Source of the DNA: a virus
Taxonomy: Duplodnaviria; Caudoviricetes
IMG/VR virus record: IMGVR_UViG_3300025838_000004
Span: 1-55,987 of that record
DNA length: 55,987 bases
Direction: 5' to 3' (one strand)
Shown one piece after another: positions 2,573-55,653 of the stretch; position 1 is the first letter of the stretch; every line of letters begins with the position of its first letter. The position numbers were made by a program, and so were the translations under genes. The notes below the pieces were generated by a model. It was given only the letters and a program-made list of their open reading frames with translations, made no database searches and was not told the DNA's origin.

Positions 2573-3049
2573 ATGAATATTTTTTATCTTCACCCTATCT
2601 CAAGAATTTGTGCTTTATATCATTGTGATAAACATGTTGTCAAAATGATTGTAGAAACTGCACAATTATTAGCAACCGCACATCATGAACACAATCACCC
2701 GGTTACGTATAAGCCTACTCATATTAATCATCCTTCTGCTATATGGGCTAGATCATCTCGTTTACATTACAACTATTTAGTTGGTTTAGGTAAAGCTTTA
2801 TGCGCAGAGTATACAAAGCGTTATCATAAAACGCATGCTTGTGAACAGTTATACGACGGCGAATTAAAAGACCCACCACCTAGTCTTACATTTAGTGGCT
2901 GGACTAATCCACCACAATGTATGCCTGATGAATATAAACATGAAGACACGGTTACTGCATATCGTCGTTATTATCGTTATAAGCAAAATGTTATCTCTAT
3001 GAAATGGTATCAAGATAATGCATATGCACCTGATTGGATGGTTGCATGA
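2573..3049 (+). CDS. Pyrimidine-dimer DNA glycosylase / endonuclease V (DenV)-like protein
   Basis: Family signature MNIFYL....CA..HCDKHVVKMI.E.AQLL, Y+PTH.NHP..IW, and PPQCMPD+YK..D.V.AYR.YY. Confidence 0.75.
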   Translation: MNIFYLHPISRICALYHCDKHVVKMIVETAQLLATAHHEHNHPVTYKPTHINHPSAIWARSSRLHYNYLVGLGKALCAEYTKRYHKTHACEQLYDGELKDPPPSLTFSGWTNPPQCMPDEYKHEDTVTAYRRYYRYKQNVISMKWYQDNAYAPDWMVA

Positions 3050-3477
3050 ATAAGTGGGATCAACGTTATTTAGATCTTGCCAAGTATATCTCAACTTGGT
3101 CTAAAGACCCGTCTACCAAGTGTGGTGCTGTTATTACTGACAAGTATAACAGAATTATTAGCACTGGGTTTAATGGTTTTCCTCAAGGCATACAAGATGA
3201 TGACAGGCTTAAAGATAGAAATACAAAGTATGAAATGATTGTGCATGCTGAGCAAAATTCTATTTTGTTTGCTAAACAAGATCTACATAGTTGCTCAATT
3301 TACACATGGCCATACCAACCTTGCTCTGTTTGTGCGGCAGTTATTGTACAAGCAGGCATACAAAGAGTAATTTCACCACAGATCTCTGCTAAAAGATGGG
3401 AAGTGTCATTTAAATTAGCAAATGATATGTTTAAAGAAGCAAACGTAGAAACTACATACATAGGACAAAAATCATGA
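3046..3477 (+). CDS. dCMP deaminase
   Basis: SKDPSTKCGAVI, GFNG, HAE and PCxxC zinc deaminase motifs; start chosen at the ATGA overlap. Confidence 0.93.
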   Translation: MNKWDQRYLDLAKYISTWSKDPSTKCGAVITDKYNRIISTGFNGFPQGIQDDDRLKDRNTKYEMIVHAEQNSILFAKQDLHSCSIYTWPYQPCSVCAAVIVQAGIQRVISPQISAKRWEVSFKLANDMFKEANVETTYIGQKS

Positions 3478-9483: not shown

Positions 9484-9732
9484 ATGAAAGCATTTCCATG
9501 TATTAGTTTAATTAATAAAAAAGAAGAATTAGGTATGGATTTAAGAGACTATTTTGCAGGACAAGCAGTTATAGGATTATTATCAGCAATAGGCCAATAT
9601 ACAACAGGTTTTCCTCAAGGTACAAGTTTTGCAGAGATCACTGCATATGATGCATATTGGATTGCAGATGCAATGTTAGAAATGAGAAAAAACACATCTG
9701 AACAACTTGATCAAATAGGAAATAAACGATGA
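9484..9732 (+). CDS. Conserved phage protein (GMxLRDYFA..A family)
   Basis: AFP...GMDLRDYFAGQA...AY.IADAML motif. Confidence 0.85.
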   Translation: MKAFPCISLINKKEELGMDLRDYFAGQAVIGLLSAIGQYTTGFPQGTSFAEITAYDAYWIADAMLEMRKNTSEQLDQIGNKR

Positions 9733-10181
9733 CTAAGAATCCATATATTTATATAGCAGGCCCATTCTTTAATGACTGGGAATTAGGTGTCATTGAACGA
9801 ATTAAGATGATTATTGAAACATATAACTTTAAATACTTTAGTCCTAAAGACGAACTGATGTATAAACCAGGCGTAACAACCCCTGAAGACATACTTAGAG
9901 CAAATGTTAATGGTCTAATGAAATCAGATTTATTGATTGTAGTTACTGACGGTAAGGATCCAGGCACAATGTTCGAGGCCGGCTGGGCATATGCTAAAGG
10001 TGTTCCTATGATCTATATGTGGCTTACAGGAACAAAGGAACAGAAGTTCAATGTAATGTTAGCAGCCACTGGTTCTGTGGTTAGATCATTTAATCAGTTA
10101 TTTGAAGCACTTGATGACATTAGAGATACAGGCGAATTTCATCGTAAAATTTGGGGAGAAGGAGGAATGATGTATGAATAA
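9729..10181 (+). CDS. Nucleoside 2'-deoxyribosyltransferase-fold nucleotide N-glycosidase (NDT/MilB/DNPH1-like)
   Basis: YIAGPFF, D.GT.FE.GWAYA.G.P and FNVM motifs. Confidence 0.85.
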   Translation: MTKNPYIYIAGPFFNDWELGVIERIKMIIETYNFKYFSPKDELMYKPGVTTPEDILRANVNGLMKSDLLIVVTDGKDPGTMFEAGWAYAKGVPMIYMWLTGTKEQKFNVMLAATGSVVRSFNQLFEALDDIRDTGEFHRKIWGEGGMMYE

Positions 10182-10680
10182 AGAGGATCATGATTTCTTT
10201 ATGCGTAGTTATTCATTAGAACATACTAAGCGTTACTCAATGAAACCTGTGATTCACTCTGAATCAGTAGCTACTCATAGTTATTTCGTAGCACTTGGTG
10301 TATTGATGATGTCTAAAGACTATGATTTTGATGTTGATCTTGCAATGAAAATTGCTATATGTCATGATCTTGCAGAGATGGAAATTAGTGATGTTAATCA
10401 CTTAGTTAAAAAGAATTTTCCACAAGTTGCTATTGCACTTAAAACTGCAGAAGAAGAAATTGTCAATAATTTTCCTGATCAAGTAAAAGAATACTGCCAT
10501 TTGTACCATGATGAAACGCCAGAAGCACTTGTAGTACATTATTGCGATGCATTTCAATGCTACCAATATGCAATGAATGAGATTAATATGGGAAATGGCG
10601 GTTACATGGTTGATGTTAGAGATAATAGCTTAATACGTATGGCAAAATTAGCAACTAAACTAGAGGCGTATAAAGTATGA
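10174..10680 (+). CDS. HD-domain deoxynucleotide phosphohydrolase (YfbR/DatZ-like)
   Basis: RYS...ESVATHSY, ICHDLAE..SD and V..CD motifs. Confidence 0.88.
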   Translation: MNKEDHDFFMRSYSLEHTKRYSMKPVIHSESVATHSYFVALGVLMMSKDYDFDVDLAMKIAICHDLAEMEISDVNHLVKKNFPQVAIALKTAEEEIVNNFPDQVKEYCHLYHDETPEALVVHYCDAFQCYQYAMNEINMGNGGYMVDVRDNSLIRMAKLATKLEAYKV

Positions 10681-10955
10681 CAACAACTGATGATGTAATT
10701 ACTGAACGTGGTAATGTCTATGGTGATTTTCATGAAGGCATTATGCTGGAAACGATTATCATTGAGTCAATTAAATTTAGACACCAAGAACATCACGGTA
10801 AACAAATGCCACCTGAGTTTGTGATGTATATGACTAAAATTGCTATGAAATTATCAAGATTAGCCATTACACCGAACCATATAGATAGCTGGACCGATAT
10901 TGCAGGATATGCAAGACTTGTTGAATTACACTTAAAGAAAGAAGAAAATGCCTAA
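10677..10955 (+). CDS. DUF6378-like protein
   Basis: ERG..YGDF, K.SR...P.H.DSW.DIAGYA.L. Confidence 0.8.
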   Translation: MTTTDDVITERGNVYGDFHEGIMLETIIIESIKFRHQEHHGKQMPPEFVMYMTKIAMKLSRLAITPNHIDSWTDIAGYARLVELHLKKEENA

Positions 10956-11877
10956 AGTAACTAAAGATAAAATGCCTCATTTACAAAAGATGCACACCGA
11001 ATTAAAGTTCGGTAAACAACCTGGACCATTGCAATTTGTAAACCAACTTACTGCAATTGATGTCAAGATTGTGCATGCACCAACAGTTGCAGAGCTTCGT
11101 AAAACGATCTCTGTATTCTTAATGAATACATGGAATGATAAGATTCAGTGGACTTTTCCTGAAGAAGACATAGATCAGACCATTGACGAATTGTTTCGTT
11201 ATGAATTACTACCCACTGCGATGGAAACGATCAATCTGACGTGGTCCGTAAATGGTATGGATATGATCGATACAACACATCTGATACGTCATCGCTTGTT
11301 TAGCTTTGCGGCACAAGTACATGGTGATCGTGATATGAGAGATGATAGAGTAATGGTAAAACCCTCTATTATGGCTAACCCTGAATTTTTTGATAGATAC
11401 AGAAAGATAACTCAAGATGCTAGACAACTTTATATCGATATGCTTGATAGTGGGCTTGTGCATGGTCTCGATACCCGTACTATTATGCCTCGTAATTTTG
11501 AGCATTTTTATATGGTTCGCTGCACAATTAAAGACCTTATTGGTTATTGTGTTATGCGTGGTGATGAACAAATTCAAACAACAGTAGATAACATTATTGC
11601 AATGAAACTATGGTTAGAAGTATTAAAGATCTACCCATTCCTAAAAGGATTAGTTGACTTTAGAAAACCTGATGCATTTTATCAAAGACAATCTGCTAAA
11701 GGTAAAACAAATATCTTTCCACCTAATGCAAAGAACGATAACTTTGATTGGTGTGAAGAACAGTTTTACCACCCTATTGGAAGAGATGAATTCCCAGGCG
11801 GTGATGTCTATTTAAAAATACGAGAAGACTTATTAAGTCAAATTGATGCAATAGAAAAAAGGCATATACATGAGTGA
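10948..11877 (+). CDS. Divergent ThyX-like flavin-dependent thymidylate synthase homologue
   Basis: HLIRHRLFSF, Y..M.DSG, R.I.P.N and downstream MR align with the ThyX fold; the RHRx7SxR motif is degenerate (RHRLFSFAAQVHGD). Confidence 0.85.
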   Translation: MPKVTKDKMPHLQKMHTELKFGKQPGPLQFVNQLTAIDVKIVHAPTVAELRKTISVFLMNTWNDKIQWTFPEEDIDQTIDELFRYELLPTAMETINLTWSVNGMDMIDTTHLIRHRLFSFAAQVHGDRDMRDDRVMVKPSIMANPEFFDRYRKITQDARQLYIDMLDSGLVHGLDTRTIMPRNFEHFYMVRCTIKDLIGYCVMRGDEQIQTTVDNIIAMKLWLEVLKIYPFLKGLVDFRKPDAFYQRQSAKGKTNIFPPNAKNDNFDWCEEQFYHPIGRDEFPGGDVYLKIREDLLSQIDAIEKRHIHE

Positions 11878-12109
11878 AAGATGGTCAGTATATCAGTATA
11901 AGTTAAGTCAAAAGACTCATCAACAACGACTTCAGTTCTATCTTGATTTCTGTAAGCAACACCCTAAGCTTACAGAAAGAGTAAAGAGTGCATTATATGT
12001 TGTAGCAGTGAACTTAGAAACACAAAGTTTTACTGCAGAGATGTCAGGTCTTCCTAAACAAGTAGTGAATCGAGTAATTCGTAAGTTTAGAGACTTCTTA
12101 CCTTTTTAA
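11870..12109 (+). CDS. Small putative HTH DNA-binding protein (TrfB/KorA-like)
   Basis: ALYVVAVNLETQSFTAEMSGLPKQVVNRVIRK resembles the A..VLV.G..Q...A...G.....V...V.R HTH pattern. Confidence 0.5.
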   Translation: MSERWSVYQYKLSQKTHQQRLQFYLDFCKQHPKLTERVKSALYVVAVNLETQSFTAEMSGLPKQVVNRVIRKFRDFLPF

Positions 12110-54420: not shown

Positions 54421-54701
54421 CACCTATTCAATGGCACAGAAAAAGAACTAAAGCAAATATGCCGCATGTGGCAGAATCAATGCTTGATTTAATGAACGAA
54501 CACGGACCTGTTCGAATTACCGAGTTTATCGAAACAGTAGAAAAAGATGCACTAGGTTCAAGAGCGCATTTGTACTTTAATTTAAACTGGCTTCGTGAAC
54601 ATGGCTATGTAAAAGCCACGAGCCCTGTAAATAATCTTCGTGTAAAAGAAGTAAGTATTACAGCTAAAGGTTTACGTTACTTAGAGAATGATCATGGATA
54701 G
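54417..54701 (+). CDS. Winged-helix (MarR-like) DNA-binding protein
   Basis: S...L...L..L...GYV......R.K.V.IT.KG..YL. Confidence 0.7.
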   Translation: MTPIQWHRKRTKANMPHVAESMLDLMNEHGPVRITEFIETVEKDALGSRAHLYFNLNWLREHGYVKATSPVNNLRVKEVSITAKGLRYLENDHG

Positions 54702-55125
54702 TATCTCTTCTAAAGAGTATGACCATTGGAAACATGAGAGCACTAAAAAACAAGTTCGTCATCTTACTTGGTATCATGTGAATGAGCTTGTTGATACACT
54801 CGAAGCCAACATTAGAAAAGCAAAGTATCATTATGAGTTAATTGTAGGTGTCACAAGAGGTGGTTTGGTTCCTGCAGTGATGCTAAGTCATCGTCTTAAA
54901 CTTCCGATGATGGCAATCACACCACGAACATTGATACCTATCACAAAAAGATGCCTCGTGATTGATGAGATCTACGATACTGGTGATACGATTAAACAAA
55001 TTAAAGAAGTAAACCCAGGCATTCACGTCGGTGTTTTGTTTCATAATGAAGCATTACCTGACTTAGAATACTTTGCAACCAAGGATCCTTTGAATCAATG
55101 GATCGTCTTTCCGTGGGAGAATTAA
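54688..55125 (+). CDS. Type I phosphoribosyltransferase (Gpt-like)
   Basis: IVGVTRGGLVPA..LSH.L, LVIDEIYDTG.T PRPP loop, WIVFPWE. Confidence 0.88.
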   Translation: MIMDSISSKEYDHWKHESTKKQVRHLTWYHVNELVDTLEANIRKAKYHYELIVGVTRGGLVPAVMLSHRLKLPMMAITPRTLIPITKRCLVIDEIYDTGDTIKQIKEVNPGIHVGVLFHNEALPDLEYFATKDPLNQWIVFPWEN

Positions 55126-55126
55126 C

Positions 55127-55267
55127 ATGAAAAAGCAGTCTAATCCAATACCTGATTGGAGAAATCCTCAGTTTGTATACCATCAGTCAGTAGCTACTGA
55201 CATATTAAAAACGCTAAAGCGGTTTGGGTTTGTTCCGCCTTCAGAAAAGAAAGAACAAAAGCAATGA
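55127..55267 (+). CDS. Small hypothetical protein (46 aa)
   Basis: Manual ORF ...F.Y..S..TDI..T..RFGF.PPSE; ATGA overlap. Confidence 0.6.
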   Translation: MKKQSNPIPDWRNPQFVYHQSVATDILKTLKRFGFVPPSEKKEQKQ

Positions 55268-55653
55268 ACTCAGATATTTTTCATAAAGTGAAAGAGTTTC
55301 GAACGAAACTGAATTTACCGACTAATACTAAGCCTCAACTCCTTAAGCCCGAGGATATTAGTTTTTATGCTCGTTTTATTATGGAAGAGCTAAGTGAGTT
55401 GATGAAAGCCCATGAGAAAGGGAACCTTGTAGATGCTGCTGATGCACTTGCTGATTTGTCTTATGTCACTATGGGTTGTGCTCATCATATGGGTGTTTAT
55501 CTACCTCGTGTACTTGATATTGTCCATGAAGCCAATATGCGTAAAGAGCCAGGAACCACGCAAAGAGGTTACCAACAAGATGCAATGAAACCTCAAGGGT
55601 GGATAGGACCTGAGGAGATGATTGCATTAGAGTTATTCGAGCAATGTAGATAA
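55264..55653 (+). CDS. MazG-like NTP pyrophosphatase (DR2231/PRA-PH type; probable dUTPase)
   Basis: EE..E, DALADL.YV..G, VH.ANM.K, KP.GW..P. Confidence 0.82.
   Translation: MNSDIFHKVKEFRTKLNLPTNTKPQLLKPEDISFYARFIMEELSELMKAHEKGNLVDAADALADLSYVTMGCAHHMGVYLPRVLDIVHEANMRKEPGTTQRGYQQDAMKPQGWIGPEEMIALELFEQCR

Follow-up and report, generated by a model that had tools for sequence, protein, structure and literature searches.

Missing catalytic residues and nucleotide-dismantling neighbours of a viral ThyX-like protein suggest a possible new pathway to a non-standard DNA base

What does a homologue of flavin-dependent thymidylate synthase (ThyX) do in a phage when it keeps the anchors for flavin and nucleotide but lacks the residues that pass a one-carbon unit to the pyrimidine? 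The question is raised by one gene of the Caudoviricetes virus IMGVR_UViG_3300025838_000004 (hereafter the window, meaning the whole 55,987-bp stretch of DNA that was analysed, a complete viral record with direct terminal repeats), whose phage was detected in 20 freshwater or lake metagenome studies. We find that the gene encodes a ThyX-fold protein belonging to a viral clade, here termed class C, the members of which carry the database label 'thymidylate synthase (FAD)' (FAD, flavin adenine dinucleotide). Weighing sequence comparisons and gene neighbourhoods, we lean, on balance, towards class C being a neofunctionalised ThyX paralogue with a distinct chemistry in a non-canonical pyrimidine pathway rather than the phage's thymidylate synthase. 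The missing ThyX residues, together with neighbouring genes whose products dismantle ordinary DNA building blocks, suggest that an uncommon DNA base is made here by a pathway not yet described. The gene in question is the following open reading frame (ORF).

10948-11877, plus strand: ThyX-like gene (class C), 309 amino acids (aa), ATG start, from the ORF call and a Pfam Thy1 match of 41.9 bits

A ThyX fold with an altered active site

To establish what kind of protein this is, we combined profile, structure and profile-profile comparisons, which agree. Residues 72-230 match the Pfam Thy1 profile (PF02511; 191 positions) from position 35 to 190 at E 1.2e-10, and their 41.9 bits clear the 24.8-bit cut-off; the same match scores 43.1 bits in the genome-wide search, and no PHROGs family matches the protein. 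As a single sequence it barely reaches ThyX structures in the PDB (E 0.5); a profile of 16 relatives recovers ThyX of Mycobacterium tuberculosis at E 1e-5 and the chains of Thermotoga maritima ThyX at E 0.005-0.13. An AlphaFold2 model built on 84 relatives (predicted local distance difference test, pLDDT, 96.6; predicted template modelling score, pTM, 0.93) has M. tuberculosis ThyX as its top Foldseek match in the PDB (3gwc_B, E 7e-11, TMt 0.68), followed by PolB and T. maritima ThyX, all at ~15% identity; Foldseek returned 156 matches at E<=0.001 and, among the matches listed by name, all were ThyX or PolB. Aligning the class C and canonical ThyX profiles with hhalign gave a probability of 99.9 (E 8e-33) over aa 68-257, with no gap across the motif region, and left ~35 extra residues before the canonical N-terminus and ~50 beyond the aligned C-terminus. 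The ORF at 10948-11877 is a genuine ThyX-fold protein. A sequence-only reading of the window had called it a ThyX homologue with N- and C-terminal extensions, and both statements hold, the first through the above-cut-off Pfam match and the ThyX and PolB structures, the second because the hhalign alignment spans only aa 68-257 of the 309. A 122-aa ORF with a TTG start is nested within the gene on the minus strand (11209-11577), which we assume to be a by-product of composition and not a gene.

The active site was mapped with tool alignments (the family profile against PDB chains, in which T. maritima chain numbering is the residue number plus 12 because of a tag, and hhalign of class C against canonical ThyX), and conservation was counted in 41 class C representatives. 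The segments concerned are these.

11209-11226, plus strand: LPTAME segment, aa 88-93, folate-stacking His absent, T90 and E93 kept (L88 in 37/41 and P89 in 41/41 representatives)
11263-11286, plus strand: helix before the RHR motif, aa 106-113, with M106 at the site of M. tuberculosis R87, which binds deoxyuridine monophosphate (dUMP), and invariant H111 at the T. maritima Q75 site
11287-11295, plus strand: RHR motif, R114-H115-R116, equivalent to T. maritima R78-H79-R80, FAD and nucleotide anchor, retained in both alignments
11302-11349, plus strand: equivalent of the active-site loop, aa 119-134, SFAAQVHGDRDMRDDR, where V124, G126 and D127 replace Ser, Arg and Tyr, followed by an Arg/Asp-rich stretch
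11476-11478, plus strand: R177, equivalent to T. maritima R147, nucleotide phosphate ligand, retained (40/41 representatives)
11557-11559, plus strand: R204, equivalent to T. maritima R174, binds and polarises the pyrimidine, retained (41/41 representatives)

On the retained side, R114 is present in 41/41 representatives, H115 in 31/41 (Y in 6) and R116 in 39/41, and T. maritima E58, T55 and S83 correspond to E93, T90 and S119 of the window protein. On the other side, T. maritima H53, which we take to be the folate-stacking His, falls on L88 in the profile-PDB alignment and one column earlier, on a variable position, in hhalign; the LPTAME segment contains no His, and aa 87-88 hold Leu or a variable hydrophobic residue. 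The remaining replacements, written as T. maritima and then window residue, are R74 to T110, Q75 to H111, E86 to A122, S88 to V124, G89 to H125, R90 to G126 and Y91 to D127, the lost loop residues being S105, R107 and Y108 in M. tuberculosis numbering. These replacements are not chance events of one genome, since they are fixed across the clade: H111 occurs in 41/41 representatives, D127 in 38/41 and R or K at position 128 in 38/41, position 124 is C in 27, V in 5, T in 3 and S in 3 of 41, and H111, R114, R204, P89 and Y162 are invariant.

The residue assignments of the sequence-only reading thus need some revision. Its retained set (R78-H79-R80, E58, R147 and R174) is recovered by both tool alignments, and the strings it quoted (LPTAME, TTHL, AAQVHGD, TRTIMP and VMR) are all in the translation. 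Its lost set survives for H53, S88 and R90 and falls for R74 and E86: canonical ThyX mostly has T-H-Q in the R74 region and Q at the E86 position, so changes at these two variable positions carry no weight. It also overlooked two losses, Y91 and the equivalent of M. tuberculosis R87 (M106).

Published work on ThyX and PolB assigns roles to these positions (papers are cited here by PMC identifier). S88 and Y91 are reported to be strictly conserved and critical, mutation of Y91 makes flavin oxidation ~1000-fold slower, and H53 hydrogen-bonds Y91 (PMC11940539), while S88A, R90A and Y91A slow consumption of the methylene-carrying flavin carbinolamine (PMC8316439). dUMP is hydrogen-bonded by R78, R80, S88 and R90 (PMC3498832). 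In PolB, the counterparts of R74, Q75, S88, G89, R90 and R147 hold the phosphate, that of R90 holds O4 and that of R174 holds O2 (PMC5003785). Judged by these roles, the protein therefore lacks the apparatus for delivering the one-carbon unit to C5 and keeps the flavin site, along with the groups that hold and polarise a pyrimidine nucleotide.

The same pattern could belong to a genuine flavin-dependent thymidylate synthase, converting dUMP to thymidylate (dTMP), with a rewired substrate loop and folate pocket in which H111, D127, R128 and a Leu replace S88, R90, Y91 and H53, and with neighbouring genes that serve ordinary supply and salvage of thymidine triphosphate (dTTP). We judge this unlikely while giving it real weight. 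The above-cut-off Thy1 score, the ThyX fold and the retained FAD and nucleotide anchors are all consistent with it, and T. maritima ThyX accepts formaldehyde instead of folate, so that losing the folate His need not abolish methylation (PMC8316439); the reportedly critical and strictly conserved Ser and Tyr, however, are absent clade-wide, and further evidence on both sides comes from the genomes that carry class C.

A viral clade that often accompanies standard synthases

Searching a profile against 1.84 billion representatives (clusters at 50% identity) matched 445 clusters at E<=1e-3, 115 at E<=1e-10 and 52 at E<=1e-30, and the matches form three sets: canonical ThyX (~200-240 aa, full motif), class B and class C. 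Class C is a viral clade of ~300-aa proteins, with 52 clusters at E<=1e-30, found on viral contigs of 35-284 kb and recognisable by the motif TH-[LI]-[IL]-RHR-x-x-S-F-S-A-Q-[CV]-[TH]-G-D-[RK]. A quick maximum-likelihood tree of 100 rows placed 44 class C rows, the window protein among them, on one side of a branch with a support of 100 in the Shimodaira-Hasegawa-like approximate likelihood ratio test (SH-aLRT), and grouped 18 canonical rows at SH-aLRT 99. Among 50,697 phage records the only class C carrier was Geobacillus phage GR1, which is also the only cultured carrier found and whose protein shares 85.6% identity with representative P0130, and a pattern-limited scan of prokaryotic genomes, one per species, gave 3 class C matches, all in metagenome-assembled genomes. 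Two of these cellular-bin matches (L243 and L244) lie in archaeal metagenome-assembled genomes (Methanobacteriota, Methanobrevibacter), and their carriers may be binned viral contigs or archaeal viruses. Class B (P0176-P0267) is also ~300 aa long, has an RHR motif without the His (R-[AQT]-R) and shares the loop motif Q-C-[TS]-G-D-x-D-x-R-H with class C; no IMG/VR relative was found for P0227, and cultured phages reached at most 33.5% identity. In open papers we found no characterised ThyX paralogue besides PolB, nothing on class C and no paper on phage GR1.

Searching 48 class C virus records whole, many of them fragments, revealed that class C often has company. The class C protein itself gave a Thy1 match in 48/48 records (60-86 bits), and a second Thy1 match, stronger and in shorter frames (115-182 bits; 216-267 aa), was present in 15/48; three second copies were inspected, and they have the full canonical motif and group with canonical ThyX (SH-aLRT 99). 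ThyA was above cut-off in 3/48 records, one of them also with canonical ThyX, so that a standard synthase, ThyX or ThyA, stands beside class C in 17/48 records. Such co-residence argues against a rewired synthase and for paralogy with a separate role.

An NDT-nucleotidase module around class C

If class C is not simply a synthase, its neighbours should suggest what it works with. In the window the ThyX-like gene is the fourth of five translationally overlapping genes, its start overlapping the stop of the preceding ORF, and the first gene of this operon belongs to the nucleoside 2-deoxyribosyltransferase (NDT) family.

9729-10181, plus strand: NDT-family gene, 150 aa, first in the operon (Pfam PF05014, E 1.6e-15)
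10174-10680, plus strand: HD-domain 5'-deoxynucleotidase of the YfbR/HDDC2 type, 168 aa, second (Pfam HD_3, E 6.4e-17; YfbR-like, E 4.2e-13; PDB matches 1xx7 and HDDC2)
10677-10955, plus strand: DUF6378 gene, 92 aa, third, between the HD gene and the ThyX-like gene (Pfam PF19905, E 1.3e-7)
11870-12109: 79-aa ORF, fifth, overlapping the stop of the ThyX-like gene (weak HTH_Crp_2 hint, E 0.047)

Among close relatives of the window, the NDT gene is conserved in 69/70, the HD gene in 75/75 and the DUF6378 gene in 78/78, and the 79-aa ORF is found in only 39/78. Beyond this lineage we compared 82 loci, namely GR1, the window and the 80 top-scoring of 145 class C matches, a diverse set obtained with a 7-sequence alignment, searching the locus ORFs iteratively with the window proteins. 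The DUF6378 gene was absent from the remaining class C loci examined. We had considered DUF6378 as a MazG-like pyrophosphatase and rejected this, as hhalign against the MazG/dUTPase_2 cluster of the class C loci gave 0.4% and the PDB nothing meaningful.

The NDT-family gene, by contrast with DUF6378, is a near-constant companion of class C. It occurs in 78/82 loci, without exception on the strand of the ThyX-like gene, and in 64 of these the two lie no more than 1 kb apart. Two gene orders are seen (NDT-HD-ThyX-like, or ThyX-like-NDT with a gap of 0-20 bp). Of the 4 loci that lack it, three are truncated near the gene, and L149 looks like a true exception. In a control set of 80 canonical phage ThyX loci, all from one canonical subfamily, NDT was present in 1/80, and that locus also holds class C. 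By one six-frame method applied to both sets, NDT was present in 0/79 control loci without class C versus 76/80 class C loci (54/55 of those at least 15 kb long), a linkage that a rewired synthase would not lead one to expect. The NDT profile matches N-deoxyribosyltransferases in the PDB (6evs, E 1.8e-21; 1s2d, E 9e-13) and DNPH1 only at E 0.12, and neither the catalytic Glu nor the FNLML Asn varies; by sequence, the NDT partner is closest to true nucleoside deoxyribosyltransferases and far from DNPH1. A complex prediction for the ThyX-like protein with its NDT neighbour scored 0.00, gave no verdict and was used neither for nor against binding.

The second constant element is a 5'-deoxynucleotidase, present next to class C in 80/82 loci (the other two are cut off upstream). 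It is of the HD type in 33 and of the NT5C type in 47, never both, and because two unrelated nucleotidases occupy the same slot the module appears to need nucleotidase activity. The NT5C-type 5'-deoxy(pyrimidine) nucleotidase is fused to a dUTPase_2/MazG-like domain in 47/47 loci, as a protein of ~310 aa encoded just upstream of the ThyX-like gene (for example L124:9025-10011 and L145:8741-9673, with 45 other loci), and to judge from its domains this fusion would take a deoxynucleoside triphosphate (dNTP) all the way to the nucleoside. MazG/dUTPase_2-like genes are found in 72/82 loci, Tmk-like kinases in ~50 and an NAD-dependent sugar epimerase or dehydratase in 48. In several loci (L088:8567-9487, L102:8513-9445, L155:8388-9431 and L161:8551-9498) a Tmk-like P-loop kinase, with a weak Thymidylate_kin match, is fused N-terminally to NDT, an arrangement that suggests consecutive steps. 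For the rewired synthase, dUTPase_2-like and Tmk-like neighbours fit a path from dUTP through dUMP and dTMP to dTDP, whereas a dUTPase-like domain fused to a 5'-nucleotidase would drain the dUMP on which such a synthase depends.

Other genes recur around class C. Within 10 kb of it, in large marine-type phages, lie Fpg/Nei-type glycosylases in 27 loci and HhH-GPD glycosylases in 18; examples of glycosylase or epimerase genes are L122:6172-6996, L145:6630-7061 and L106:16012-17004. In GR1-type loci (6 loci) a nitroreductase-family gene adjoins the ThyX-like gene and fits the part of an external flavin reductase, and the GR1 cluster includes an annotated glycosyltransferase for which Pfam gave no confirmation.

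Nucleotidases of the same families bear on a further alternative. In phages with deoxyuridine-containing DNA (dU-DNA), the dTMP phosphatases are an HD enzyme of the YfbR family and an NT5C-family enzyme (PMC12697855), and because the neighbours of class C belong to these families one could picture class C as a non-catalytic decoy that shuts down host thymidylate synthesis, either in mixed tetramers with host ThyX or as a dUMP sink. ThyX active sites draw on several subunits (PMC6514825, PMC5003785), so a mixed tetramer could be poisoned by a member that lacks the loop residues. We nevertheless regard the decoy as highly improbable: what stays invariant is exactly the set that binds ligands, together with new polar side chains (H111, D127, D214 and N215), which is the pattern of an enzyme, the canonical ThyX that 15/48 carriers encode themselves would be poisoned too, and ~15% identity to cellular ThyX makes mixed assembly unlikely. 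The HD protein of the window gave 7 weak phage matches, none to the characterised roseophage dTMP phosphatase, so its substrate cannot be inferred from them.

Elsewhere in the window, two further genes are predicted to act on nucleotides.

3034-3477, plus strand: dCMP deaminase, a source of dUMP (Pfam PF00383, E 1.4e-17; phrog_174)
55264-55653, plus strand: all-alpha NTP pyrophosphohydrolase (PRA-PH/MazG-like), the window's candidate dNTP pyrophosphatase (Pfam PF01503, E 6.7e-17)

The dCMP deaminase gene is present in 27/27 close relatives long enough to test and in 16/82 diverse class C loci, and just upstream of it (2573-3049) lies a pyrimidine-dimer DNA glycosylase domain like T4 endonuclease V (Pfam Pyr_excise, phrog_624). 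The PRA-PH gene is linked to the MazG/dUTPase_2 cluster of the class C loci through Pfam alone, hhalign giving a probability of 1%. A short gene with a phosphoribosyltransferase domain (54688-55125) lies close upstream of it, near the right genome end, and the pair could combine recycling of a base after its release with dNTP hydrolysis. The genome, whose G+C content is 35-45%, also encodes an A-family DNA polymerase and a primase.

These features leave some room for class C as an active flavoenzyme that manages the nucleotide pool and does not modify DNA, for instance by oxidising or reducing a pyrimidine nucleoside or base so that pyrophosphatase, nucleotidase and NDT could turn the deoxyribose of host-derived pyrimidines into nucleotides needed by an AT-rich phage. 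In keeping with such a role, the NDT is closest to true nucleoside transferases (6evs) with its catalytic Glu and FNLML Asn invariant, a nucleoside-yielding nucleotidase is always present, the phosphoribosyltransferase of the window could recycle the released base, and the window has the low G+C content just given and neither a glycosyltransferase nor a kinase of its own. We consider it improbable all the same, as the kinase-NDT fusions point to making nucleotides and not to breaking them down, the retained R177, R204 and Arg-rich loop suggest a nucleotide ligand and not a base, and to our knowledge no salvage route needs a ThyX-like flavoenzyme.

Candidate chemistry, its counterweights and its meaning

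Under the favoured reading of class C as a neofunctionalised paralogue, FAD, reduced or oxidised, would stack on the pyrimidine polarised by R204 and bring about a folate-independent change at C5. The preferred reaction would be an O2-dependent hydroxylation of dUMP or dCMP, which we rank first because reduced flavin, O2 and an activated pyrimidine would suffice for it, and the protein retains the means for all three; even so, this specific hydroxylase assignment is in itself unlikely. As a second choice, the methyl group of dTMP might be oxidised to a hydroxymethyl group via an exocyclic methylene, which would explain the co-occurrence with canonical ThyX. Hydroxymethylation from methylenetetrahydrofolate (CH2-THF) was ranked last and set aside, as it requires the methylene-transfer residues that are absent. 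The invariant H111 and the D127 that stand in place of Q75 and Y91 may serve as acid/base groups, and D127, a neighbour of the O4-contacting position, might favour a base with a 4-amino group, which would be cytosine; this cytosine hint is speculation, by analogy with the Asn-to-Asp switch in ThyA homologues.

The neighbours would complete the path. Pyrophosphatase, nucleotidase and NDT may strip a competing canonical pyrimidine dNTP to nucleoside or free base, or may swap its base, and the product of the ThyX-like enzyme would be phosphorylated, by host kinases in the window phage and by the Tmk-like kinase in others, and then enter phage DNA. Taken as a whole, the proposal is a tentative one, on the doubtful side of the balance. 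It holds that abundant phages of fresh and marine waters, and GR1 with them, have DNA containing a non-canonical pyrimidine that has so far escaped detection (5-hydroxy-dU or 5-hydroxy-dC, for example), placed there by the ThyX-like protein together with this base-swap chain (dNTP pyrophosphatase, 5'-nucleotidase, NDT and kinase). The sequence-only reading had arrived at a flavoprotein that acts on a pyrimidine nucleotide, probably without folate-dependent methylation, and this stands in part: the kept anchors (RHR, R177, R204 and E93), the absent methylene-transfer and folate residues, the paralogy in 17/48 records and the NDT-nucleotidase linkage favour it, while R74 and E86 drop out as real losses and a rewired synthase keeps the chance given above.

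Comparison with known systems shows where this chemistry would have precedent and where it would not. Canonical ThyX (T. maritima TM0449, M. tuberculosis Rv2754c) shares with class C the fold (TMt about 0.7), the RHR motif, the Arg pair R147/R174 (R177/R204) and E58 (E93), whereas class C is ~15% identical, has by alignment no His, Ser, Arg or Tyr at H53, S88, R90 and Y91 and no Arg at M. tuberculosis R87, is tied to NDT and a nucleotidase, and occurs as a second copy beside canonical ThyX in 15/48 records. PolB, the C5-methylase of UMP and dUMP in polyoxin biosynthesis (PDB 4p5a and 4p5b), is close in structure (Foldseek E 2.9e-10), and its His83, which contacts phosphate, lies at the position of class C H111 (PMC5003785). 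In PolB numbering, which is T. maritima numbering plus 8 as derived from the same paper, the enzyme keeps Glu94, Ser96, Arg98 and Tyr99 and with them folate methylation (PMC5003785), unlike class C, which has none of the four: the window protein carries A122, V124, G126 and D127 at these substrate-recognition positions. PolB is, moreover, a bacterial enzyme of an antibiotic pathway, whereas class C is viral.

For the proposed reaction itself the nearest precedent is in another fold. The 5-hydroxy-dCMP synthases of phages RB69 and DLP3 are flavin-bound ThyA homologues, folate-independent and O2-dependent, that work with a deoxynucleoside monophosphate (dNMP) kinase (PMC13326640), and they would be like class C in turning a phage synthase homologue into a C5 hydroxylase. 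They differ in that ThyA is unrelated in fold to ThyX and their activity is demonstrated, that of class C being a prediction, and the available part of PMC13326640 describes no NDT or nucleotidase module. Bacillus phage SP-15, with hypermodified thymine in its DNA, offers a partial likeness at the level of gene content: besides a canonical-like Thy1 protein it encodes a divergent one, gp130, hypothesised by its authors to be a hydroxymethyl-dUMP synthase (PMC5977210), 1 kb from the NDT-family gp127, with an HD 5'-nucleotidase (gp90) elsewhere. In the SP-15 record (L242, positions 113729-116910) the tandem two-domain NDT gp127, the SDR reductase gp129 and gp130 stand in a row. gp130 was rejected as a class C member, as it is 413 aa long, has no RHR and gave an hhalign probability of 2%. 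For the NDT partner a model exists in DmtZ, an NDT-family protein that in Z-genome phages removes dAMP and rebuilds dZMP, so that a canonical dNMP is removed and a non-canonical base receives its sugar phosphate (PMC12884076). The substrates of DmtZ are purines (dAMP and Z), whereas the class C partner resembles NDTs that work at the nucleoside level.

Several observations weigh against a distinct chemistry. As the altered segment forms a loop, the alignment could be moved by one residue, which pairs Q123-V-H-G126-D-R128 with E86-L-S-G89-R-Y91 and conserves the Gly; under this shift the Ser position is H in the window and T in 19/41 class C representatives, and R128, R131 and R134 could be stand-ins for R90. 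Among class C records at least 90% complete, only 2/9 have a second synthase, so class C could be the sole synthase in most phages, the other 7/9 being without another. Profile searches of the window's complete genome found no ThyA and no second Thy1 gene (the sole PF02511 match is the ThyX-like ORF), yet the genome encodes a dCMP deaminase, the usual partner of a genuine thymidylate synthase; the sole homologue alongside this deaminase and the 7/9 near-complete genomes both speak for the rewired synthase. Nor did the searches find a Tmk-like kinase or a GT_1/GT_2 glycosyltransferase in the window genome, and a dUTPase-like domain, ThyX and a Tmk-like kinase together are a textbook route to dTTP too. 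The locus statistics have limits of their own: the control loci share a single subfamily, and a ~1179-aa neighbouring gene, annotated as 'PHP domain-containing protein' in GR1, is common to 60/82 loci, so the locus counts are not independent events. Lastly, the window phage assembles from ordinary metagenome libraries in all 20 studies, so any modification of its DNA does not block sequencing.

Should class C chemistry indeed differ, the label 'thymidylate synthase (FAD)' would be wrong for at least 52 clusters at 50% identity, and class C would join PolB as only the second ThyX known to have taken on a new function, with no earlier viral case; the recently reported 5-hydroxy-dCMP synthases of the ThyA fold would have in it their ThyX-fold equivalent. 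With Geobacillus phage GR1 in culture, the matter is open to direct test. The constant module of pyrophosphatase, nucleotidase of two unrelated types, NDT and ThyX-like protein would then be a genomic marker for phages with unrecognised DNA chemistry, with relevance to restriction evasion, sequencing bias and enzyme tools.

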